Part shown: positions 1 through 13,564 of the stretch, one piece after another
How the letters are laid out: each line of letters begins with the position of its first letter
Numbering within the stretch: position 1 is the first letter of the stretch
Assembly: GCA_012517875.1 (NCBI GenBank)
Contig: JAAYUB010000095.1
Span: 787-64,786 of the forward strand
Source of the DNA: Acidobacteriota bacterium
Lineage (GTDB): Bacteria; Acidobacteriota; JAAYUB01
Direction of reading: 5' to 3'
DNA: 64,000 nucleotides
Program-made: the position numbers and the translations under genes
Notes under the pieces: generated by a model
Seen by the model: only the letters and a program-made list of their open reading frames with translations
Databases searched by the model: none
What the model was told of the DNA's origin: nothing

Positions 1-3000
1 ATGAAGTTCATCTCCGTCGATCCCCAGACGCCCAACGTCCTGTTCGCCGGCATCTCGGAAGGCAGTTTCTTCCGCAGCCGCAACTGGGGCCAGAGCTGGG
101 AGGTGATCGGCGGCTTCAATTCACCCATGGCGGCCGGCGCCGTGCATCCACTGAATCACCGGGTTGTGCTCGCCGCCAACTCGGACGGAATCCACCGGAG
201 CACGGACGGCGGTGACGGGTGGACCCGGGTGTCCACCATCGCGGACGTCCGCTGTTTCGCCTTCCATCCCACCGATGCCGCCATCATCTACGCGTCCTCC
301 TATAACCGGATCTATCGGTCCAACGACGGCGGCGGCAGTTGGGATGCCATCGCCACCCTGCCTGGCAGTCCGCAGATCGACCAGATCAAGCAGGCCCCAC
401 TGGCCCCGCTGACGCTCTACATCGCCACCTGGAATTCGGGGGTGCAGAAAAGCGTCAACGGCGGTTTGAACTGGACGGACGTCTCGCCCGGTGCGGGCAG
501 CGGTTGGCGCGTGGCCTGCCATCCCACCCTGCCCGGCGTGGTGTATGCCTCCTCGTATCAGCCCATGGCGTTTTACACCAGTACGAACAGCGGCGCATCC
601 TGGACGAAGCATCCGACGGCTGTTTCCTTCCTGGATCTGGTTGGTGATCCGGGTAATCCCAACCGGTTCTTCTTCATCAACCTGCACACCGTTTACCGAA
701 GTTCCGACGGCGGCGTCACGTTCGAGAACGTCCTGCAGCCGGGCGGCCGGTGCATCGCCATCGAGCCCGTCGATCCGAACGGGGCGCTTTACGCCGGTAC
801 CATCTCCGGCGTCCAGCGTTCGATGAACCGGGGAGTGACATGGAAAGCCGCCAGTTCCGGTCTGTTGACCAAAACCAATTGTCTGGCGGTGTCGCCCGAC
901 GAACCCGGTGTGGTGTACGCCGGCGACGACACCGGCTATCTGTTCAAAAGCACCGACGGCGGCGAATCATGGGAATACCAGAGCCACGTCGGCAGCAACC
1001 TGCCCTTTCAGAACCTGGCGATCAGCCCGGCCACCGATCCGCCGGCCATCATGGGCACCGTCAACGGCGACCTCTGGCGGACCCTGAACGAGGGCGACAC
1101 CTGGACGAAAGTGATCAGCGGCGGCGGCACGGTCAACAGCAAGGATATCTTCGACCTGGCTGTTCACCCCGCCGATCCGTCGACGGTGTACGCCACCTCG
1201 GGGTGGCCGACCTGGGATTACGACTACGACGGCCTGTACGTCTCCACCGACGCCGGCGCCACCTGGGCTCCCACCGGCCAGCTCATCGGCGTCAACATCA
1301 TCGACCTGATGTTCGATCCGTGGTCACCGTTGAAGATGTACGCCGCCGGGGACGACGGTTTCTACAAGTCCACCGACGGCGGCCTCTCCTGGGACCCGGC
1401 GATGACCGGCCTGACCGAACCGCACGTGTACAGCCTGGCATCCAACGAGGACAGTCCGCAGACACTCTTCGCCGGCACGCGCTGGGGCGTGTTCAAGAGC
1501 ACGAACGAGGGCGGTCTGTGGACGCCCGCCGGCCTGGAGTACAACTGGGTGCAGGCCCTGGTGCGCCAACCCAAGAGCGGGAACATGTTCGCCGGCACGA
1601 CGGACGGACTGTTCTACACCCGCAATGACGGCGCCAACTGGTACCCCGTTTCCAGGGCCACGACCGAAACGGATGTGCAGGCGCTGGCCACCGACGTCCG
1701 CACGCCCACGCGGATCTACGCGGCCACATCGAGCGGTGTGTTCGCCTACACGTCGATGACCTCGCCCACGGTGCCCCTGTTGAGCCGCTCCGGTCAGACC
1801 GGCAACGTGAATCAGGCGCTCGCCGCCCAGATTCTGCCGGCTTCGGCGATCACGTTCCTGCTGGCGCCCGACACCTTCCCCACCGCCGGCACCGCCAACC
1901 CGGTTATCCTGGAACTCACCCTGCCCGCCGGCGCCCTGCTGAGCCAGACTTTGGCTGATGGCAAACTGTCCCAGCTTGAAGTGTTGCCCGCCGGCGCCAC
2001 GGTGCATCCGCTGGCTGTCTCCGAATACGCCTTCGACGGCATGTCCGCCACCTACCAACCCGTCGCGAGCACTGCGGCCACCGCCGGGATCGACGACCAC
2101 GCGATCCAGCTGTTTCGCTGCGTGCAGGGCGAGAACAAGATCTGGTTGCGCCTCACCCGGAGCACCAGCGCCTGGGAACCCGACAACGACGAGAACTATC
2201 TTGGTTTCACCATCGGGATCGGCGCCGGTGTCTGGCCCATGAACGGGGCGAGCAACTGGGGCGCCGCGGGCCAGTTCACCCAGGCCAACTCCCAGTTCTT
2301 CGGGGATCTGCGGGGCTACGATTTCAACCTGACCGACGACATGTTCCCGGTGACGGTCCGGGCGTTCTACCAGAAGACGGGCGCCGCCACGACCACCACA
2401 TTCACCCCCGACACGCTGAACCTGTTCCGGCTCGATCACACCATCGCGGAGGATGTCGCCCCCGTCCGCCTCGTGGGCGCCACGATCACCGACCATGCCC
2501 AGGGCGACCTCGACGGCGACGGACGCGAGGACATTGCCTCCATCGACGGGGCAGCCAACCGGCTGTACTGGTCGCTGTCCGGGCCCGACGGCACCTACCC
2601 GTCGCTGGACTGGCGGGCCTTGGACGGCGCCGCCGCCCGCACGGTGGAAATCGGCGACGTGACCGGCGACGGCCGGCCGGACATCCTCGTCGCCGACGCC
2701 GCGGGCACTCTGCGGATCTACGCCTGGGAAACCCTGTTCGAGAAAGCCGGTCGCCCCGGCAACCGGCTGGTACCCGTGCGGACGACGGCGCTGGCCGGTG
2801 AACCCAGCGCCTCGCACGTGATCGACATCAACGGCGACAACCAGAAGGATTTCCTGTACACGGTCCCCGCCACCAATACCCTGCAGATCCTGTACGGGCA
2901 GCAATTTGCCAGCAGCACGTCGGTTTACCTGAGCGATGGGCCGGTGGCGCTCACCACCGGCGACTTCAACGGCGACGCCCGGCCGGACATCGCGGTGGCC

Positions 3001-4809
3001 AACCGCGATGGCAACTCGGTGACGGTGGTGCGCAACGACGGCGGTTCGTTCTCCGCCGTCAATTATGCCACCCTGGGCGCGCAACCGGTCGCCGTGGCGG
3101 CCGCCGACTTCGGCCGCGACGGCCGGACCGACCTGGCCGTGGCGCAGGCGGCGAACAAGTCCATCAGCATCTGGCACGCCGGCACCGGCGGCACTTTCGC
3201 GCCCGGATCCGGCCAGACCATCTATTTCGTCAATCCGCCGTCGGCCCTCCAGGCCGACAACTTCGACGGCCAGCACGGGCCGGACATCCTGGTGGGCTAC
3301 GCCGATTACTACAAGCTCGGGCTCTGCGTCTCCGACGCCGCCGGCACCATGACCTACGCTTACTCCATCAACACGCTGGGCGACATGGAGCTGGATCCCG
3401 TCAACCACGTGACGCTGGTCGAGAACGACATCCTGAGCATCGCCGGCGGCACCACGCTCGGCGGCATCTGCTCCCGGACCGGCGTGGCGGCACTGGCCGA
3501 CCGGGCGTTCAACCTGGTGCATCTGCCGCGGAGCCAGGACCTGTCGTTTTCCGTCATCAACCTCGGCACGGCGGCGGGCCTGCTCAACCTGGAGCTTTAC
3601 GACAGCGCGGGCACCCACCGGAAGGCGGTCACCGTGCCGCTGGCGCCCGGCCAGCAGTTCGCCCGCTACCTCACCGATCCGAGCGTGTTCGGCGCCGACG
3701 CCGACCAGCCCGGCCGCTGGGTGCGCGGCTTCCTGACCGAGCCGGAGACCTACGGGTTCTGGCTGGCCAACGACGGCGCGACCCTTCACTACATGGACGG
3801 GCTGTCCCTGCCCGACGCCCGCGACGCCCACACCCGGCTCTTGTTCCCCGCCGGCACGGATCCGGTGCGCACGCTGCTGGTCATCAATCCCAGCAAGGAC
3901 CAGTGCCGGCTGGTGCTGGAGCGGCTGAGCAACGGCTCCGTCCTCCAATCCAAGTCCTACACGCTGGCAGGCCGCGGCCGGCTCGAGGTGGATCTGGGGA
4001 CCGCATTCCCCGCCCTGGCGGCGCCCGATTTCATCGGGCTACGCGCCGACATCCCCGTGGTGGGCTGCCAGTTGTCCGGCAACAGCGAGAAGCTGGCGGC
4101 AATCGACGGCCTGTGCCTCCCCGAGGCGGCCGCCATTCTCTACTCGCCGCATTTCGCCTGCGGGAATCTGGGCGTCAATTACGAGACGAAATTGACCGTG
4201 CTCAACGCGACCGACACCGGCACGGCCGTGGTGATCCGCAGGTACGGCGACGCCGGCCAGCTTCTGGGCACCAGTCCGACCCTGAGTATCCCGGCGCAGA
4301 GCAAGCTCCAGCAGGATGTGGCCACCCTGTTCGGCCTCGTCGGTCCCGCCACGGGTTATTTGACCGTGGAGCCGCAGGGCGCGACGCCGCTGGTGGGCCT
4401 GGTGACATTCGGGGAGGCCGGCAACGGGCGGTTCCTGTCAAGCCTGCCCCTGGCCGTGCAGGGACAGGCCCGCAGCCTCGTGGCGCACATGGCCAACGGC
4501 AAACTGGGCAACACCTCCTTTTTCACGGGTCTCGCCGTGCTCAATCCGGACGATGTCGCCCAACAGGTCCTGCTGACAGCCCACGACCAGAATGGCATGG
4601 AGCTGGCGGCGGACACGCTCAACATCCCCGCCCGCGGCCGGAGCGTCTTCCTGCTGGACCAGCAGATGCCGGAACTGACGAGCATCTTCGGTGGTTTTCT
4701 ACTTATCGAGAGCCTGAGCGACCCGGCCCGAGACGTGATCGTCTTCGCGCTGTTCGGCGACCAGGCGCTGAACTTCCTGTCCGCCGTCAGCGCCCAGCCG
4801 CTGCCTTAG
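1..4809 (+). CDS. Large secreted repeat protein, 5'-truncated at the window edge. The N-terminal half has about 12 BNR/Asp-box repeats, followed by FG-GAP/VCBS-type Ca-binding repeats and a beta-rich C-terminal region.
   Basis: A 1602-codon ORF is open from nt 1 to the TAG at 4807-4809. It has repeated SxDGGxxW motifs (STDGGDGWTRV, SNDGGGSWDAI, STDGGESWEYQ, STDAGATWAPT, STDGGLSWDPA, TRNDGANWYPV). It also has repeated DxDGDGRxDI motifs (DLDGDGREDIA, DVTGDGRPDILVAD, DFNGDARPDIAVAN, DFGRDGRTDLAVA). Composition is protein-like throughout. Confidence 0.8.
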   Translation: MKFISVDPQTPNVLFAGISEGSFFRSRNWGQSWEVIGGFNSPMAAGAVHPLNHRVVLAANSDGIHRSTDGGDGWTRVSTIADVRCFAFHPTDAAIIYASSYNRIYRSNDGGGSWDAIATLPGSPQIDQIKQAPLAPLTLYIATWNSGVQKSVNGGLNWTDVSPGAGSGWRVACHPTLPGVVYASSYQPMAFYTSTNSGASWTKHPTAVSFLDLVGDPGNPNRFFFINLHTVYRSSDGGVTFENVLQPGGRCIAIEPVDPNGALYAGTISGVQRSMNRGVTWKAASSGLLTKTNCLAVSPDEPGVVYAGDDTGYLFKSTDGGESWEYQSHVGSNLPFQNLAISPATDPPAIMGTVNGDLWRTLNEGDTWTKVISGGGTVNSKDIFDLAVHPADPSTVYATSGWPTWDYDYDGLYVSTDAGATWAPTGQLIGVNIIDLMFDPWSPLKMYAAGDDGFYKSTDGGLSWDPAMTGLTEPHVYSLASNEDSPQTLFAGTRWGVFKSTNEGGLWTPAGLEYNWVQALVRQPKSGNMFAGTTDGLFYTRNDGANWYPVSRATTETDVQALATDVRTPTRIYAATSSGVFAYTSMTSPTVPLLSRSGQTGNVNQALAAQILPASAITFLLAPDTFPTAGTANPVILELTLPAGALLSQTLADGKLSQLEVLPAGATVHPLAVSEYAFDGMSATYQPVASTAATAGIDDHAIQLFRCVQGENKIWLRLTRSTSAWEPDNDENYLGFTIGIGAGVWPMNGASNWGAAGQFTQANSQFFGDLRGYDFNLTDDMFPVTVRAFYQKTGAATTTTFTPDTLNLFRLDHTIAEDVAPVRLVGATITDHAQGDLDGDGREDIASIDGAANRLYWSLSGPDGTYPSLDWRALDGAAARTVEIGDVTGDGRPDILVADAAGTLRIYAWETLFEKAGRPGNRLVPVRTTALAGEPSASHVIDINGDNQKDFLYTVPATNTLQILYGQQFASSTSVYLSDGPVALTTGDFNGDARPDIAVANRDGNSVTVVRNDGGSFSAVNYATLGAQPVAVAAADFGRDGRTDLAVAQAANKSISIWHAGTGGTFAPGSGQTIYFVNPPSALQADNFDGQHGPDILVGYADYYKLGLCVSDAAGTMTYAYSINTLGDMELDPVNHVTLVENDILSIAGGTTLGGICSRTGVAALADRAFNLVHLPRSQDLSFSVINLGTAAGLLNLELYDSAGTHRKAVTVPLAPGQQFARYLTDPSVFGADADQPGRWVRGFLTEPETYGFWLANDGATLHYMDGLSLPDARDAHTRLLFPAGTDPVRTLLVINPSKDQCRLVLERLSNGSVLQSKSYTLAGRGRLEVDLGTAFPALAAPDFIGLRADIPVVGCQLSGNSEKLAAIDGLCLPEAAAILYSPHFACGNLGVNYETKLTVLNATDTGTAVVIRRYGDAGQLLGTSPTLSIPAQSKLQQDVATLFGLVGPATGYLTVEPQGATPLVGLVTFGEAGNGRFLSSLPLAVQGQARSLVAHMANGKLGNTSFFTGLAVLNPDDVAQQVLLTAHDQNGMELAADTLNIPARGRSVFLLDQQMPELTSIFGGFLLIESLSDPARDVIVFALFGDQALNFLSAVSAQPLP

Positions 4810-5210: not shown

Positions 5211-7700
<2,490 letters not shown>

Positions 7701-7963
7701 AACCTTATCTCCTCTGAGCCGATGAATCATCCACGTCCAGCAGACCGGCTGTCCGGCGCGTCCCCTCCGATCGTCCGTCGGACCTTGTGCACCAACCGCA
7801 GGGGCGCCGCCGGATGAGCGTCCAGAAGCGCCATTTGTCGCCGGCACATCCGGCCAAGGAACCGTCTCTGAAACTGAGCATTATTGTGAGAGAGGGCCGT
7901 GAAGTCAAGTCATTTCGGGCAACCGCCGCCGGAGCGGCCCGTCCGCGGCCGCCGGCAAGCCGG

Positions 7964-8692
7964 TCAGGATTCGGCGGGCGGATCGTCGGACGGCTTGAGC
8001 CGGCTGGCATATTCGGGGTAGAGCCGGGCGACGCAGTCGGGGCAGAGGCCGTGGCTGAACTCGGCCTGCGAGCGGGCTTCGATGTACGCCTCCACCTGGT
8101 GCCAGAACCCCTGGTCGTCGCGGACCTTCTTGCAGCCGGCGCAGATGGGTATCAGGCCGTGCAGGGTCTCGATGCGCGCCAGCGCCTCCCGCAGCTTCCC
8201 GATCAGGCGCTCGCGCTCTTCTTCCGCTTCCCGTAACGGCGTGATGTCGAGTCCGGAACAGATGATGTAGGCCGGTTCCCCGCCCTCACCCGGGCAGGCC
8301 GTGACCGTCCACTGGGTGCAGCGCCGCCGGCCCATCCGGTCCGTCCAACAGATCCGGTCGTCCACCGGGGATTCGCCGGAACGAATCCGCTCCAGCAGCG
8401 GCCGCATGCCGGCGCCGGGTTCGACGGGCGGAAAGCATTCGTCGGGGGACCGGCCGATGCCATCCGGGAAGGGGCGGCCGGCCGCCCGCTCGGCGGCGCG
8501 GTTGAAGCGCAGGACGCGGCCATCCAGATCCAGCACCACCAGCAGGGCGTTGCTGCTGTCGAGGACCGCGGTGACGAAGTTCCGCTCCGTCCGGAGCAGC
8601 CGTTCGGTCTGCTCCAGGTCGTCGCTGCTGCGGGTGTCGGGTCGCGTCTCGTCCATCGGTGCGTCCATCCGCGCCATTATACTCCCGTTCAC
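7964..8692 (-). CDS. PAS-domain sensor protein with a C-terminal four-Cys zinc-ribbon-like motif and no kinase domain.
   Basis: The N-terminal PAS-like block is RNFVTAVLDSSNALLVVLDLDGRVLRFNRAAERAAGRP. The C-terminus is LIPICAGCKKVRDDQGFWHQVEAYIEARSQAEFSHGLCPDC (CxxC...CxxC). It lies 58 nt downstream of the radical SAM gene on the same strand. The exact start is ambiguous (8692, 8677 or 8668). Confidence 0.75.
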   Translation of the reverse strand: MNGSIMARMDAPMDETRPDTRSSDDLEQTERLLRTERNFVTAVLDSSNALLVVLDLDGRVLRFNRAAERAAGRPFPDGIGRSPDECFPPVEPGAGMRPLLERIRSGESPVDDRICWTDRMGRRRCTQWTVTACPGEGGEPAYIICSGLDITPLREAEEERERLIGKLREALARIETLHGLIPICAGCKKVRDDQGFWHQVEAYIEARSQAEFSHGLCPDCVARLYPEYASRLKPSDDPPAES

Positions 8693-8750
8693 GGCGAAAC
8701 CGGCAAGCCGGACATCTCGGACGATCTGCTGGACTCCGTGTACGCGCCAA

Positions 8751-10721
8751 TCACCGGACCAGAACCCCCCGCCGCACCAGATCGTTCAGCAGCCGGTGCA
8801 GCGACCGGTTCACTTCCGCCCGCGGGGTGTCGGGATAATGCGCCGCGGCCGCCGCCTCCAGCGTCGCCACGGAGGCGCCCGGTCCGATCCACTCGAGCAC
8901 CCGGGCGACTTCCGGACCCACCGTCGCCATCTCCACCCGGTCTCCTGTCAGATACATCACCAGCCGGCGCGGCGTGTGATCCACCGCCGCAAGCGGGGCC
9001 AGTGTCTCAATGAGGGCCAGCGCGTCCGAATCGAGGTTCAGGATACTGGCGGTCCCCGCAAGACGGATTGCGCCCGCGGGCACCGGCGGGGATGGCGGCG
9101 CGGAGCAGCCCGCCAGGATCCGCAGGCGGCCCCAGTGGTGCTGCAGCCGCAGGAGATCGTCCAGCGGGCGGAGCAAGACCGGCCGACGGGCGGCCCGGGA
9201 CGCGGCGGCCAGGAACAGCCTCAGGGCGGGCAGCGCGCCAGGCTGCCCGACGGGCGACGCCAGGCGGGCCAGCTCGGAGTCGTTCAGGGGAGCGCCCCGC
9301 CAACGGCCGGCAAGGAAATCCTCCAGCACCTCCGCCGGCCGACGCTCCAGCTCGCGCGCCATCAGCCCGACGATTTCGGTCCGATAGGTGAACTGGTGGA
9401 AAATTGTGAGCGCCCGGGCCAGGCGCTCCGCCCGGGCCATGTCGCCGGCGGAAAATGTGGGGCAGCTTTCCAGGTAATACGGCGGCTCCGGCTGGTGGCG
9501 CAGGCCCAGGCGTTCCGCATCGTGGGCGAAGCGGCTCCCCGGCAGCACCTGGAGCCGGAAGCAGTTGATGAAATTCGGCTCCATGGCGAAAGCGGCGTCA
9601 AGGGTCCTGCTGAAGGCGGCGTAGTCGTCGCCGGGCAGGCCGTAGATGACATCCAGGCTGAAGGGAAGGCCGGCTTGCCGGAGCTGGCGCGTCCTGTCAC
9701 CGAACGCCTCCAGCCGCGCCGTCCGCCCGGCTTGCCGCAAGGCGCGCGGCGAGCTGGACTGGAGGCCGAAGATCAGGAAATCGCCCACCCGGCCCGCCAG
9801 TGGCGCCAGGTCCGGGGGATGCAGCGTGGCCAGGTTCAGCTCCGCCCCGACGAGCGTCAGGTTGTCCGCGGCGGCCAGGTGACGGACCAGCGCCCGGAAC
9901 CGCCGCGGCTCCTGGTTCAGGCCGGGATCGAGCAGCCAGACTTTCCCGCCCCCGGACGCGGCGAACGCGCGCAGGGCGCGGACGACACCGCCGAGCGGCC
10001 GAAGCCGTCGGCCGGGTGACTGGACGCCATATGTGCAGTAGGCGCAGCGGTGGCGGCAGCCGCGAGCCGTCTCCAGGACCAGCAGGCCGGGGTGGCGGCG
10101 GCGGAAATCGGGATCGTCCAGCGGCGCCGGCACGCGGCTCAGCGCCAGTGGTTCGGGGGGCGGGTGGGCCCGGCAGTCGTCGCCGTCCCGGACCACGAGC
10201 CCCGGCGTCTCGGTCCAGGGCGCGGCGTCGAGGTCCGCCAGCCGCCGCAGCAGCAGCCGGAACACCTCCTCCCCCTCGCCTGCGACGACGGCGGCCACCG
10301 CCGCCGGGTGCCGCGCCAGCAGCGCCCCGGCCCGGAAGGTCGCGTCGGGCCCGCCCAACAGCACAATCGCCGCCGGATCGAGCGTCCGGATCCCTTCCGC
10401 CAGGCGCAGCATCGCCGCGCTGTTCCAGGAATAGCACGACAGGCCCACCACGTTGGGACGGTCGGCGGCCACCGCCGCCAGCACCCGGTCCTCCGGCTCG
10501 GTGACCGGCAGATCGTGAACCGTCACCGCGACGCGCTTCGCCAGCTCGGGATCGCTGCACGCGTAGGCCCGCAGGTTGTACACCGCCAGGTTCGGCGCTG
10601 CGGCGCCCATCACCTCCATGGCCAGCCCCACGAGACTGACGCGCAGCGGCGGCGAACATCGACCGTCGTCGCGGCCGGGGCCGCTCCCTTCGGCAGGCGT
10701 TGTCTTCGATGGTGGCCTCAT
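8751..10721 (-). CDS. B12-binding-domain radical SAM protein (class B rSAM) with a ~250 aa C-terminal extension ending in a PqqD/RRE-like segment.
   Basis: The N-terminal cobalamin-binding-like region is VAVTVHDLPV...VVGLSCYSWNSAAMLRLAEGIRTLDPAAIVLLGGPDATF. The radical SAM motif is CRHRCAYC (CxxxCxxC). The C-terminal ~60 aa are ATVGPEVARVLEWIGPGASVATLEAAAAAHYPDTPRAEVNRSLHRLLNDLVRRGVLV. The start ATG at 10721 overlaps the TGA of the upstream membrane-protein gene (ATGA). Confidence 0.85.
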   Translation of the reverse strand: MRPPSKTTPAEGSGPGRDDGRCSPPLRVSLVGLAMEVMGAAAPNLAVYNLRAYACSDPELAKRVAVTVHDLPVTEPEDRVLAAVAADRPNVVGLSCYSWNSAAMLRLAEGIRTLDPAAIVLLGGPDATFRAGALLARHPAAVAAVVAGEGEEVFRLLLRRLADLDAAPWTETPGLVVRDGDDCRAHPPPEPLALSRVPAPLDDPDFRRRHPGLLVLETARGCRHRCAYCTYGVQSPGRRLRPLGGVVRALRAFAASGGGKVWLLDPGLNQEPRRFRALVRHLAAADNLTLVGAELNLATLHPPDLAPLAGRVGDFLIFGLQSSSPRALRQAGRTARLEAFGDRTRQLRQAGLPFSLDVIYGLPGDDYAAFSRTLDAAFAMEPNFINCFRLQVLPGSRFAHDAERLGLRHQPEPPYYLESCPTFSAGDMARAERLARALTIFHQFTYRTEIVGLMARELERRPAEVLEDFLAGRWRGAPLNDSELARLASPVGQPGALPALRLFLAAASRAARRPVLLRPLDDLLRLQHHWGRLRILAGCSAPPSPPVPAGAIRLAGTASILNLDSDALALIETLAPLAAVDHTPRRLVMYLTGDRVEMATVGPEVARVLEWIGPGASVATLEAAAAAHYPDTPRAEVNRSLHRLLNDLVRRGVLVR

Positions 10722-11201
10722 GGCCGGGTTGCGGAAGCGGAAGACGGCTCTGACTCGATCGGCTGATCCGGGCACTCCAACGCCTGGTTGAGGCAGTCGT
10801 ATTCCTGCCGCATCAGCGCCAGCCCGCCCAGGCCGAACGAGGCGACAGCCACCCCCTGAAACTCATCCCCCAGGACGACGAGCAGAACCAGCCCGAGCAG
10901 CACCGCGAAGGAAAACAGCAGGATGGAGCCTGTGACCACCCATTGGAACAGACTGACGCGGCGGGTCAGCTGCTTCCGCCGGAGGTCCACGATCCGACTG
11001 TTATCCCGCAGTCCCTCCAGGGCCATGGCGAATCCGTACAGGAGCAGGGCGAAGCACAAGTCTTTCGTGAATTCCTCCCGGCGCCCGAACACCATGGCCT
11101 GGAGCTGATAGTACACTCCCCCCACATAGAAGGCGAATTTCAGATGGCTCAATCCGTGAAACACGCGGTTGAAACGATTCCAGCCGGCAGATTTTTCCAT
11201 G
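10718..11201 (-). CDS. Small integral membrane protein (about 3 TM helices), hypothetical; first gene of the rSAM cassette.
   Basis: Start MEKSAGWNRF... has an AAGGAA SD 4 nt upstream. Hydrophobic segments are FAFYVGGVYYQLQAMVFG, LCFALLLYGFAMALEGL and VSLFQWVVTGSILLFSFAVLLGLVLLVVLG. The stop overlaps the rSAM start. The six-frame ORF extends to 11410 but its N-terminal part lacks coding character. Confidence 0.6.
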
Positions 11202-11380
11202 AGTTCCTTCCGTTGAATCCGCCTGCCACCCGGACCCCGGTCTGAGGGCGTCGCCACGTCGGGCAGGATCCAGCGATCGGCAGGAGATGGCTCTGGCACA
11301 GTATCATAGCACCTGACACCCTCGTTTTCATCAAACGGTCTTGATCGCCGCTGGGGACGGTGCGACATCCAACAAGCAGA

Positions 11381-11455
11381 CAAAAAAATGCTGCCGTGGA
11401 TCGGCAGCATTGCATCTGCATCATTCCTGTCGATGCGCGGGCGGAGCCCGCGCGC
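11381..11455 (-). terminator. Intrinsic terminator of the ECF sigma operon: two hairpins, the second followed by a T7 tract on the minus strand.
   Basis: The hairpin gcgcggg-cggagc-ccgcgcgc (11435-11455) abuts the DUF4252 stop at 11456. A second hairpin atgctgccg-tggat-cggcagcat (11388-11410) reads on the minus strand as stem-loop + TTTTTTTG. Confidence 0.7.
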
Positions 11456-11968
11456 TTATTGCGTCCGTTGGACCCGGCGGGCGATCGCGGTGGGCTCGTC
11501 CATCCACTCGAAGAACTTGTCGGGGTCCAGGCGGACGTGGAGCACGGCCGCGTCGCCGTCGTCCACCGAGACGATCATGAGCCGCACCTCGTTCTTCGCA
11601 GACTGCACCCAGATGAGCTGGGCCTCGTTGCGGGCGGGGCAGCGCTGGCAGACCATCCGGGCCCAGCCGGGCCCGAGGCACGCGCGGGCACCCGCCTCCA
11701 GCTCGCCGAACCCGGCCGCGGCTTCGCCGGGCACATCTTCAAAGACGGCGAACTGAAGCCCCTTGACTCCCTCCGGCTTGGCGAAGCGCACGGCGAGCCC
11801 CACCAGCCAGCCGCAGGGGATATCGGCCTTCGCGGTGCCGAGCTGCTGTTCCACGTGGCGGACCAGCCGGTCGAACTCCTTGCCGCCGGCCTGAACAGGC
11901 GCCGCCGCAAACAGCGCCAACCCGAGCAGCAGGAAGGTCGGCAGGAGACGTCCAACCGCGGAGCGCAT
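11456..11968 (-). CDS. Secreted hypothetical protein, DUF4252-like paralog (second copy).
   Basis: It has a signal peptide MRSAVGRLLPTFLLLGLALFAAAPVQA. It is similar in length and pattern to the upstream DUF4252-like gene (FD.L...E shared motif, C-terminal VRLMIVSVDD vs LAVINIVGPID). There is a 1-nt gap to the upstream gene. It is the last gene before the terminator. Confidence 0.65.
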   Translation of the reverse strand: MRSAVGRLLPTFLLLGLALFAAAPVQAGGKEFDRLVRHVEQQLGTAKADIPCGWLVGLAVRFAKPEGVKGLQFAVFEDVPGEAAAGFGELEAGARACLGPGWARMVCQRCPARNEAQLIWVQSAKNEVRLMIVSVDDGDAAVLHVRLDPDKFFEWMDEPTAIARRVQRTQ

Positions 11969-11969
11969 G

Positions 11970-12563
11970 TCAGTGGCTCCCGGACCGGTGGTCGTCCTTT
12001 TCCAGCTCCAGGTCGGGGATGCCGATGTGTCCCTCGAGATCCATCAGCATCTCCATGTCGATGGGACCCACGATGTTGATCACCGCCAGCTCCCTGTCCT
12101 CGAAAGCGATGATGGCCAGCCCCTCGATGGCGTCACCTTTGAGCAACATGAAGATGTCGACGTTCTCGCTCCCTTTGCGGCTGCGCACGCCCACGAGCCG
12201 GCTCCATTCCGGCGCGCGGAGCTGGCTGCGGACCGCCTCGATGTCGGCGTCGGTGAACTGGCCGTCCGCGCCGAAGGTGTAGGCCTTCACGTAGATCCCC
12301 TTGAGCGAGTGGACCAGCTTGCGGACTGCGACTTCTTCCGGGTCCTTCTTGGACAGGAACGCGCCGGCGAACCGCAGGCTGTCGCCGTCGAGGGTGACGT
12401 CCACCACCTCGTCCGCCTTGGCCTCGAGGTGCCTGAGGGCGTCGAAATTGATCTGGGCCCCCTGGCCGGCTGCGGCGGGTGAAAGGGCCGCGAGTAGGAA
12501 CAGGGCGAATGCCAGAACCGACAAACGGAACAGGTATGGTTTCATGGTCTTCCTCCGTGTCAT
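11970..12563 (-). CDS. Secreted DUF4252-family-like protein (typically found downstream of ECF sigma/anti-sigma pairs).
   Basis: It has a signal peptide MKPYLFRLSVLAFALFLLAALSPAAAG and then a soluble domain. Gene order is sigma > anti-sigma > this gene. The family assignment is from memory of the DUF4252 context and was not searched. Confidence 0.65.
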   Translation of the reverse strand: MTRRKTMKPYLFRLSVLAFALFLLAALSPAAAGQGAQINFDALRHLEAKADEVVDVTLDGDSLRFAGAFLSKKDPEEVAVRKLVHSLKGIYVKAYTFGADGQFTDADIEAVRSQLRAPEWSRLVGVRSRKGSENVDIFMLLKGDAIEGLAIIAFEDRELAVINIVGPIDMEMLMDLEGHIGIPDLELEKDDHRSGSH

Positions 12564-12608
12564 TTCAGATCAAACCGTCAGATCCGGATCTCCGATGCAT
12601 CACCGAAG

Positions 12609-13022
12609 CTATGTGCGGGCGCGCTCCACGGCCCGCTCCCGGGCGGCGTTCATCTTGCGGCTGGCCAACCGCAGCGCCCGGATCAGTTCCTCTTTCAGTC
12701 GCGCTCCGTCCTCCCGTGACATCCCCGGGGGCAACCCGGTCAGCTCCGGCACCCCGGCCGCCGGGACGACAGGCGCCGCAGGCGGCTCCCCGGCCGGCTG
12801 GCTCGGCCACAGCCCGAACCGCCACTGGGCCCAGCTCCCCGCGGCCAGCAGCAGGGCGGCCGCCGCCAGTCCGCGGACCAGGCGGCCTCGCGATGCCAGC
12901 CGGCGCGACGTGCGCCGGTCGGCGTCAAGCCGGGCCACCCGGGCCATCACCCGGCGGGTGAACTCGGGTCCCGGATCCTCGGGCGCCAGCGCCCGGCGCA
13001 GCTCGTCGTCCAACGGGGTCAT
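12609..13022 (-). CDS. Anti-sigma factor (single-pass membrane protein, RskA/ChrR-like N-terminal domain).
   Basis: The start ATG at 13022 overlaps the TGA of the sigma gene (ATGA coupling). The N-terminal cytoplasmic region is MTPLDDELRRALAPEDPGPEFTRRVMARVARL. There is one TM helix LVRGLAAAALLLAAGSWAQW. The Pro/Ala-rich periplasmic tail is composition only. Confidence 0.7.
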   Translation of the reverse strand: MTPLDDELRRALAPEDPGPEFTRRVMARVARLDADRRTSRRLASRGRLVRGLAAAALLLAAGSWAQWRFGLWPSQPAGEPPAAPVVPAAGVPELTGLPPGMSREDGARLKEELIRALRLASRKMNAARERAVERART

Positions 13023-13522
13023 GAGAGCACCTCCGGCGTATCGGCCACCCGGGCTCGGAGCCAGCGCACGGACCGATGGATCCGGCTCTTCACCGTATCG
13101 ACGGGCACTCTCAGCGTCCGGGCGATCTCCCGGGGCCGGAGGCCCTCCTGGTAGCGGAGTACCATCACCAGCCGCGACGTCGCGGGCAGCCGGCCCACCA
13201 GTTCGCGGAGTTGGCCCAGCAGCAGCGCCTCGCCCTGCTCGGGTGCCGAGGCCAGGGTCGGCACCTCGAGCTCCACGAGCTCCGGCTGGCGGCGGCGGAC
13301 CCGCCACGCGTCCACCACGCACCGCGTGGTCACCTGACGCAGCCAGTGGCGCAGGTGCGCCGCGCTCTGGATGCCTTCCCCGTGCTGGTACAATCGGATG
13401 AACACGTCCTGGGCCACCTCTTCGGCCAGTTCCCGGTCCCGCAGGAATCGGAGCGCCAGGCTGAACACCCATGCCTGGTGTTCCCGCACCACCTGTTCGA
13501 ATTCGGCCGGGCTCCACTCCAT
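13019..13522 (-). CDS. ECF (sigma-70 family, group IV) RNA polymerase sigma factor.
   Basis: Region 2 is FLRDRELAEEVAQDVFIRLYQH. The region 4 HTH is REIARTLRVPVDTVKSRIHRSVRWLR. It is ~167 aa from MEWSPAEF (ATG 13522, GGGAGAGG SD 7 nt upstream). The alternative start at 13552 lacks an SD. Confidence 0.85.
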   Translation of the reverse strand: MEWSPAEFEQVVREHQAWVFSLALRFLRDRELAEEVAQDVFIRLYQHGEGIQSAAHLRHWLRQVTTRCVVDAWRVRRRQPELVELEVPTLASAPEQGEALLLGQLRELVGRLPATSRLVMVLRYQEGLRPREIARTLRVPVDTVKSRIHRSVRWLRARVADTPEVLS

Positions 13523-13564
13523 CGGTTTGCCTCTCCCGGGCACGTCCTGCATTCTTCATACCTA

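Follow-up and report, generated by a model that had tools for sequence, protein, structure and literature searches.

A rare class B radical SAM enzyme of an Acidobacteriota bacterium with a probable C-terminal RRE domain, and a candidate peptide gene beside its distant relatives

On contig JAAYUB010000095.1 of an Acidobacteriota bacterium, in a stretch of 64,000 nucleotides that is called the window here, a minus-strand open reading frame (ORF) at 8751..10775 encodes a B12-binding radical S-adenosylmethionine (SAM) enzyme with a long C-terminal extension. An earlier note on this DNA had read the last part of the extension as a small winged helix of the PqqD type, that is, as a recognition element (RRE) of the pathways that make RiPPs (peptides that are synthesized on the ribosome and modified after translation), and had taken this to imply a peptide or protein substrate. 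The locus therefore raises two questions: what the tail is, and on what kind of molecule the enzyme would act. Sequence profiles and structure prediction together make it rather likely that the product of the gene is a radical SAM enzyme of class B (cobalamin-dependent) and that the ~100 residues at its C-terminal end make up an RRE domain of the PqqD-type winged-helix kind. The enzyme probably modifies a peptide or a protein tail, and peptide binding is predicted.

Counted from the GTG at 10775, as residues are numbered throughout, the ORF encodes 674 amino acids (aa); from the ATG at 10721 it encodes 656 aa. The ATG is the likely start, because P0001, a database protein from an Acidobacteriota metagenome-assembled genome which is 99% identical to the window protein, begins at the corresponding residue, Met19. 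The order of the domains, as given by sequence analysis and structure prediction, is B12-binding domain, radical SAM core, helical region and RRE-like tail (Table 1). The CxxxCxxC motif of the 4Fe-4S cluster is formed by Cys240, Cys244 and Cys247 (at 10035-10058) and is invariant across 13 aligned family sequences. AlphaFold gave a full-length model with a mean predicted local distance difference test score (pLDDT) of 86.6 (88-96 in the tail), and the best matches of this model among PDB structures in a Foldseek search were TokK (E=1.3e-24) and CysS (E=1.5e-24), with 625-660 aligned columns, followed by MgmA, TsrM and OxsB. By sequence and model, the product of the window gene is a class B radical SAM enzyme of predicted activity.

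Within this class, the best NCBIfam profile was that of the KedN5 family (NF033712), which scored 87 bits with the window protein against a cut-off of 700; more distant relatives reached 103-192 bits, still below 700, with the match extending to position ~500 in P0027. Neither the window protein nor any of the ten scanned relatives falls within a curated NCBIfam family. Since the window protein falls outside ApyD, KedN5 and TIGR03975 by score, it was treated as a member of a rare family of class B enzymes with an RRE that is still uncharacterised. A scan of 185,579 species genomes returned 80 loci with only four full-length family members, and a metagenome scan with the family alignment gave only partial class B enzymes among the matches listed. 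What is new is the small ORF found beside some members of the family (see below), the architecture being of a known kind.

The C-terminus of the ORF reads ...MATVGPEVARVLEWIGPGASVATLEAAAAAHYPDTPRAEVNRSLHRLLNDLVRRGVLVR up to the stop codon. The 57 residues that the earlier note had quoted from it are residues 616-672, followed by V673, R674 and the stop, and they do form the true C-terminus of a B12-binding radical SAM enzyme, both Pfam domains of which score above their cut-offs; positions 8751-9050, from which they had been taken, correspond to residues 576-674 plus the stop codon. When the tail alone was compared with the whole Pfam library, its best match was PqqD (PF05402), with E=0.0010-0.0014, and the NCBIfam library added two weak matches, one to PqqD_rel_X (E=0.002), the other, with E=0.0045, to positions 163-235 of the 237-position HvfC model, in its RRE part. 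The tail is kept in all 12 of 12 full-length homologues, and when the family profile was run in a full HMMER search, ~40 more proteins of 600-670 aa were matched through its end. Among 39 aligned family tails, PqqD was matched by six and NGO1945_C, the C-terminal domain of DUF2063, by five; the window protein itself gave no DUF2063 sequence match. The clearest case is P0029, an unambiguous family member with a match over the whole length (E=1.2e-193), whose tail exceeds the PqqD cut-off with 26.1 bits over model positions 2-67 of 67 and also touches NGO1945_C and Lant_dehydr_N, the N-terminal model of lantibiotic dehydratases (positions 142-194).

A profile made from the 39 tails was also run against 177,635 PDB sequences. 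PqqD (5sxy) came first with E=0.056 and TbiB1 (5v1u) second with E=0.13, values that are each non-significant alone; that these two proteins should take the top two places among so many sequences is telling as sequence evidence. A word-index protein search with the same alignment gave nothing at E<=10, the database being too large for a divergent domain of 100 residues. Judged from the profiles, the resemblance of the tail to PqqD exceeds chance.

The structural evidence points the same way. Modelled alone with the alignment of 39 sequences, the tail reached a pLDDT of 92.6. Residues 569-598 form two short strands and a small helical insert, residues 603-618 a beta-hairpin, and residues 621-630, 636-646 and 652-668 one helix each. 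In the model it shows the structural marks of an RRE, namely a winged helix-turn-helix, three helices and likeness to solved RREs. The eight best matches of the tail model in a Foldseek search of the PDB were all RRE domains: chain A of TglHI in two entries, including 8hci (E=5e-4 and 7e-4, template-modelling (TM) score 0.73 over 116 columns), four chains of TbiB1 with leader peptide (5v1v/5v1u, TM 0.75-0.79 normalised to the target), the lasso B1 protein 6jx3, again with leader, and PqqD. Non-RRE winged helices, e.g., PKMT1, rank below these, with a TM of 0.42. Chain A of TglHI was taken to be the TglI subunit, because an RRE-type domain occurs in TglI only. The C-terminal domain of TglI has been described as an RRE that binds the substrate peptide (PMC10880893). 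TokK and CysS were not among the fold matches of the tail in this search of the PDB, so that the RRE would be an addition to a TokK/CysS-like scaffold. The proposal in the earlier note of a winged helix at the C-terminal end of a class B enzyme is supported, transitively by sequence, through the P0029 tail and the PDB ranking of the 39-tail profile, and by the fold matches of the predicted structure, a prediction for which that note had called.

It was also observed that the full-length model aligns to chain A of TglHI (8hi7_A, rank 33) over 232 columns with a TM of 0.53 by target. This hints that the helical region and the RRE together may resemble the whole two-domain TglI; DUF2063 gave no sequence match.

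Further arrangements were seen among relatives. P0030 (1214 aa) is a full family member, tail region included, that is fused to a second B12-binding/radical SAM module. P0010 stands directly after a gene for a 1059-aa radical SAM/SAM-methyltransferase fusion and a DUF2064 gene (L004:4050-9926), where the micro-ORF described below does not occur. At a third locus (L009:372-4597), the distant tailed relative P0070 lies in tandem with a second B12-radical SAM gene (607 aa), the product of which also has a tail that matches PqqD (20.4 bits). Ahead of the two genes stands an ORF of 102 aa that consists of AAG(V/I/T)T repeats and may be either a repetitive precursor or a GC-rich frame artefact.

In a search for short ORFs conserved with the enzyme, the 450 nucleotides (nt) upstream of each homologue were translated in three frames. 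In three to four distant lineages (L003, L006, L010/L177-L179, L014 and L176), a micro-ORF of 18-48 aa ends 15-51 nt before the enzyme gene. Its motif is h-E-h-x-D/E-h-D/E-E-T/Q-x-h-x-A-x-x-P, with one Glu and one Pro invariant, and the alternation h-E-h-x-D/E-h-D/E-E looks, from the sequence, like an amphipathic strand. The micro-ORF of L003 reads MDAYEKNEKVQEDIDLEIVDLDETAFAAHQPPQTE and stands before P0008, which is 40% identical to the window protein; that of L006 reads MRRDGLEIIDIDEQALPANMPPRA, before P0009 (34% identical); that of L010 reads ...MDFELLKEENFEVSELEETLLAAVQPEEM, before P0012 (31%); and that of L014 reads MNAVMNLELFTEEEFEVCELEETLLAAARPEEA, before an enzyme with 29% identity.

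Several observations suggest that these ORFs are genes. GGAGG-type ribosome-binding sites precede ORFs in four loci (L003, L006, L008 and L014), the micro-ORF loci span 32% to 63% GC, and the codon differences among the three closest copies fall most often in third positions. In leave-one-out profile searches, the micro-ORF was the top six-frame match in L003 (E=7e-6), L006 (E=0.01) and L010 (E=0.017). A database search with the peptide alignment brought in two more members, P0174 and P0175, and in every contig long enough to show it (L176-L179) the micro-ORF lies directly upstream of the family enzyme. In the analysis of conserved neighbours across the family, it was the sole shared neighbour. 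The micro-ORFs of the distant lineages appear to be real genes and are candidate substrates of the enzyme, and the candidate peptide family matches nothing found described. In four contigs of one lineage (L010, L177, L178 and L179), a gene for a LysR-type regulator is transcribed divergently, ~50 nt from the micro-ORF.

These results change the standing of the peptide substrate that the earlier note had implied. The idea gains support from a conserved micro-ORF that adjoins distant members of the family, the binding itself being inferred. A short ORF conserved together with the enzyme, which that note had suggested looking for, was found upstream of the gene in the distant loci and was found neither in the window nor in the closest relatives. 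The statement that no precursor lies near the gene, made for the surrounding 1.5 kb, holds for the whole 64 kb by the micro-ORF profile.

In the window, the enzyme gene lies between two genes on the same strand (Table 1).

Table 1. Positions of the enzyme gene, its domains and the neighbouring features in the window
Feature	Position	Strand	Basis
Class B (cobalamin-dependent) radical SAM enzyme gene	8751..10721	-	ATG as in P0001; AlphaFold; Foldseek
B12-binding (Rossmann-type) domain, residues 84-175	10251..10526	-	Pfam PF02310, 60 bits vs cut-off 32.1
Radical SAM core, residues 235-393	9597..10073	-	Pfam PF04055, 44.2 bits vs cut-off 29.5
Helical C-terminal region between radical SAM core and tail, residues 443-556	9108..9449	-	Secondary structure of model
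RRE/PqqD-like tail domain, residues 569-674	8754..9071	-	Sequence profiles and predicted structure
Core winged helix of tail	8754-8969	-	Within the domain of residues 569-674
Predicted multi-pass membrane protein gene (160 aa), upstream of enzyme	10718..11200	-	ORF; weak DUF2721 match only (E=0.003)
PAS-domain protein gene (242 aa), downstream of enzyme	7964..8692	-	Pfam PAS_4, 56.4 bits; synteny in L001
Promoter-like site upstream of membrane-protein gene	11303..11331	-	Consensus scan only
Terminator-like hairpin of preceding gene	11387-11411	-	Consensus scan

The TGA stop codon of the membrane-protein gene overlaps the ATG of the enzyme (ATGA), and the membrane protein, which is conserved only in the closest Acidobacteriota relatives, ends in an acidic C-terminal tail, ...EYDCLNQALECPDQPIESEPSSASATRP. 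The PAS gene starts 58 nt past the stop codon of the enzyme and is probably in the same operon, because a terminator scan found no terminator-like site in between; membrane-protein, enzyme and PAS genes look like one operon. The arrangement of the three genes recurs in the close relatives L001, L011 and L012 (72-91% identity), and in more distant homologues the neighbourhood of the enzyme is entirely different. At its C-terminus the PAS protein has a segment with four cysteines, LIPICAGCKKVRDDQGFWHQVEAYIEARSQAEFSHGLCPDC, that neither Pfam nor NCBIfam assigns to a domain and that looks, by its sequence, like a small metal-binding output module. An Rfam scan of 7000-13000, in which a cobalamin riboswitch was among the things sought, matched no family. 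Upstream of the operon (11456-13552, minus strand) lie genes for an extracytoplasmic function (ECF) sigma factor, a probable anti-sigma factor, a DUF4252 protein and a 170-aa protein, in the same order as in L001. The operon is flanked by genes for a 1602-aa secreted-type protein (1-4809, plus strand) and a membrane H+-pyrophosphatase (5211-7847, minus strand), both syntenic in L001, where the counterpart of the 1602-aa protein gave mostly faint matches to BNR and FG-GAP families.

How far, then, can the tail be explained in other ways? It might simply be where the ordinary C-terminal domain of this enzyme class, of the DUF4080 or DUF4070 type, comes to an end, and have no separate binding function. 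Long C-terminal extensions are common in class B enzymes, TokK and CysS among them, and in several of the more distant relatives (P0036, with E=1.5e-10, P0139, P0051, P0085 and P0017) a DUF4080 match does follow the radical SAM core. Starting within the final strands of the barrel, these matches reach into the first part of the helical region (about residues 420-520); they use only the first 70-136 of the 188 model positions and end roughly 50-200 residues short of the C-terminus, i.e., before the tail. In P0036, the last 70 residues have a PqqD match of their own, apart from the DUF4080 match, and from this the architecture was read as B12-binding domain, core, a helical region that is shared in part with other class B enzymes, and an added RRE-like domain. 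The window protein has no DUF4080 match, and at E<=1 DUF4070 matched neither it nor any of the ten relatives that were scanned. With a tail that folds independently in the model and matches RREs, this explanation is highly improbable, and the DUF4070-type alignment that the earlier note had named as the alternative falls away.

A somewhat better case, still an unlikely one, can be made for a generic winged helix that serves in dimerisation, binds nucleic acids or docks a partner such as the PAS protein, a carrier protein or a reductase, on an enzyme that acts on a small molecule as TokK, CysS and KedN5 do. The best structural matches of the whole protein are small-molecule methylases, KedN5 is the best NCBIfam profile, the window has no precursor, the neighbourhood is not conserved across the family, and the weaker matches of the tail include winged helices that are not RREs (PKMT1 by fold, as well as HTH_IclR and linker histone). 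Such winged helices reach only the TM of 0.42 given above, whereas the eight best fold matches are all RREs, three of them solved with bound leader peptide; the sequence matches of the tail (PqqD, HvfC and NGO1945_C) are all peptide-recruitment domains, TokK and CysS do not appear among its fold matches, and the conserved micro-ORF adjoins the enzyme gene in distant lineages. A further possibility accepts the RRE and makes the substrate of the Acidobacteriota lineage a protein, the candidates being the membrane protein, by way of its acidic C-terminal tail, and the PAS protein. Proteins do serve as substrates of some class B radical SAM enzymes, and MgmA, the glutamine methylase of methyl-coenzyme M reductase, is among the full-length fold matches. 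The ATGA overlap and the conservation of the operon-like set in L001, L011 and L012 speak for this possibility, as does a loose likeness by eye between the membrane-protein tail (...EYDCLNQALECPDQP...) and the micro-ORF motif (...EIVDLDETAFAAHQP...). The micro-ORF profile, however, misses the membrane-protein tail even at E<100, and the motif is therefore not claimed there; the association of membrane protein and enzyme is confined to close relatives, so that synteny alone accounts for it, and for the PAS protein adjacency is the sole evidence. A protein substrate of this kind is accordingly quite improbable, and the membrane-protein tail and the PAS protein were rated as less likely substrates in the window than a peptide encoded elsewhere.

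The reading of the tail as an RRE on a peptide-modifying enzyme has its own difficulties. By the PF05402 profile, which the earlier note had proposed as a check, the window tail alone scores 19.4-19.8 bits and the full protein 16.3 bits, below the Pfam gathering threshold of 23.4, and it is the tail of P0029 that passes; the two E-values of the PDB ranking given above are not significant by themselves. In the model, the candidate first strand (577-581) is parted from the strands of the hairpin (603-610 and 613-618) by the short helical insert. The micro-ORF profile finds nothing in the six frames of the 64-kb window even at E<100, so the proposed micro-ORF substrate does not apply directly to the window gene, and the micro-ORF is also absent from L001, L011 and L012 and from the loci of P0005, P0006, P0010 and P0011. 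An 18-aa ORF in L008, motif-like by eye, fails the leave-one-out test and is counted as doubtful. In the loci examined, no protease, transporter or further RiPP or tailoring gene is conserved near the enzyme. As to the chemistry, methylation is most likely by analogy, being only the commonest reaction of class B enzymes; cyclisation or ring contraction is also possible.

On the reading of the tail as an RRE, the enzyme might work as follows. A recognition segment, part of a peptide or of a protein tail, would be captured by the RRE as one more beta-strand, in the manner of leader-bound TbiB1, and the rest of the substrate would thereby be held in the active site. A 5'-deoxyadenosyl radical derived from SAM at the 4Fe-4S cluster would abstract a hydrogen, and methylcobalamin would give a methyl group to an unactivated carbon; C-methylation was proposed because it is the commonest class B chemistry and that of TokK, CysS, KedN5 and ApyD. 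In the lineages that bear the micro-ORF, the substrate would be the acidic micro-ORF peptide. In the lineage of the window, it would be encoded elsewhere or be a protein, e.g., the cytoplasmic tail of the coupled membrane protein.

A more speculative proposal, rather doubtful as it stands, is that micro-ORF and enzyme make up a self-contained two-gene cassette for a new modified peptide, perhaps a cofactor or signal like the product of PqqA and PqqE, with no dedicated protease or exporter. In the lineage of the window, the peptide would then have been lost and the enzyme rewired into the membrane-protein/PAS operon, where its substrate would be a protein tail or a peptide from another locus. 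The family is of wider interest because no marker of peptide-modifying pathways is more general than the RRE domain and because class B enzymes methylate unactivated carbons. The tail of this family escapes a threshold-based Pfam scan because it lies below the PqqD threshold, and once it is recognised as an RRE, what had been no more than a "radical SAM protein" would have a class of substrates that can be tested. Beside the distant members, the micro-ORF offers a concrete candidate peptide and, if the pair is active, a new minimal system of peptide modification.

An RRE on a class B radical SAM enzyme is an architecture that has already been documented. ApyD, of the aminopyruvatide pathway in Burkholderia thailandensis, is an RRE-containing B12-dependent radical SAM enzyme that methylates the beta-carbon of tyrosine (PMC11117315), a compendium of radical SAM proteins that are associated with RREs includes a PoyB group (PMC10288494), and for a B12-dependent radical SAM enzyme MpcC has been proposed as a partner that resembles an RRE (10.1101/2024.01.23.576971). 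The window protein shares with ApyD, the substrate of which is a ribosomal peptide, the combination of a class B enzyme with an RRE, and the two are of similar length: the NCBIfam model of ApyD has 645 positions, with the B12-binding domain and radical SAM core at about 65-445. Since the core ends at about 445 of 645, the extension of ~200 residues in ApyD was placed at the C-terminus, and the RRE, the position of which is unstated in PMC11117315, is probably within it. The window protein is nevertheless no orthologue of ApyD, as it scores 40.4 bits against a cut-off of 750 (NF050148) and in the region of the B12 domain only. It also differs in having no oxidative enzyme of the multinuclear non-heme iron-dependent type (MNIO), P450 or methyltransferase as a neighbour, and the candidate peptide is a different one.

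The PQQ system of PqqA, PqqD and PqqE is similar in that a very short peptide gene adjoins the gene of a radical SAM enzyme and that a PqqD-type winged helix holds the peptide. PqqD occurs alone or joined to PqqC, the latter in the PDB entry that was matched, whereas the domain described here is the C-terminal part of a class B enzyme; PqqE, for its part, is of the SPASM type, works without cobalamin and makes a C-C crosslink. TokK, CysS and KedN5 share the B12-binding domain, the radical SAM core and a helical C-terminal region with the window enzyme, but the solved complexes of TokK and CysS hold pantetheinylated small molecules according to the titles of the PDB entries. TglI, HvfC and NGO1945 (DUF2063) are non-catalytic partners of MNIO iron enzymes and are not fused to a radical SAM enzyme, yet the C-terminal RRE of this group is the best structural match to the tail, and the HvfC and NGO1945_C models match it as well. 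The lasso B1 proteins (TbiB1, 5v1v/5v1u; 6jx3), finally, are stand-alone proteins of ~85 aa that belong to a protease/cyclase pathway, but they have the same winged-helix fold as the tail and were solved with the leader peptide bound.

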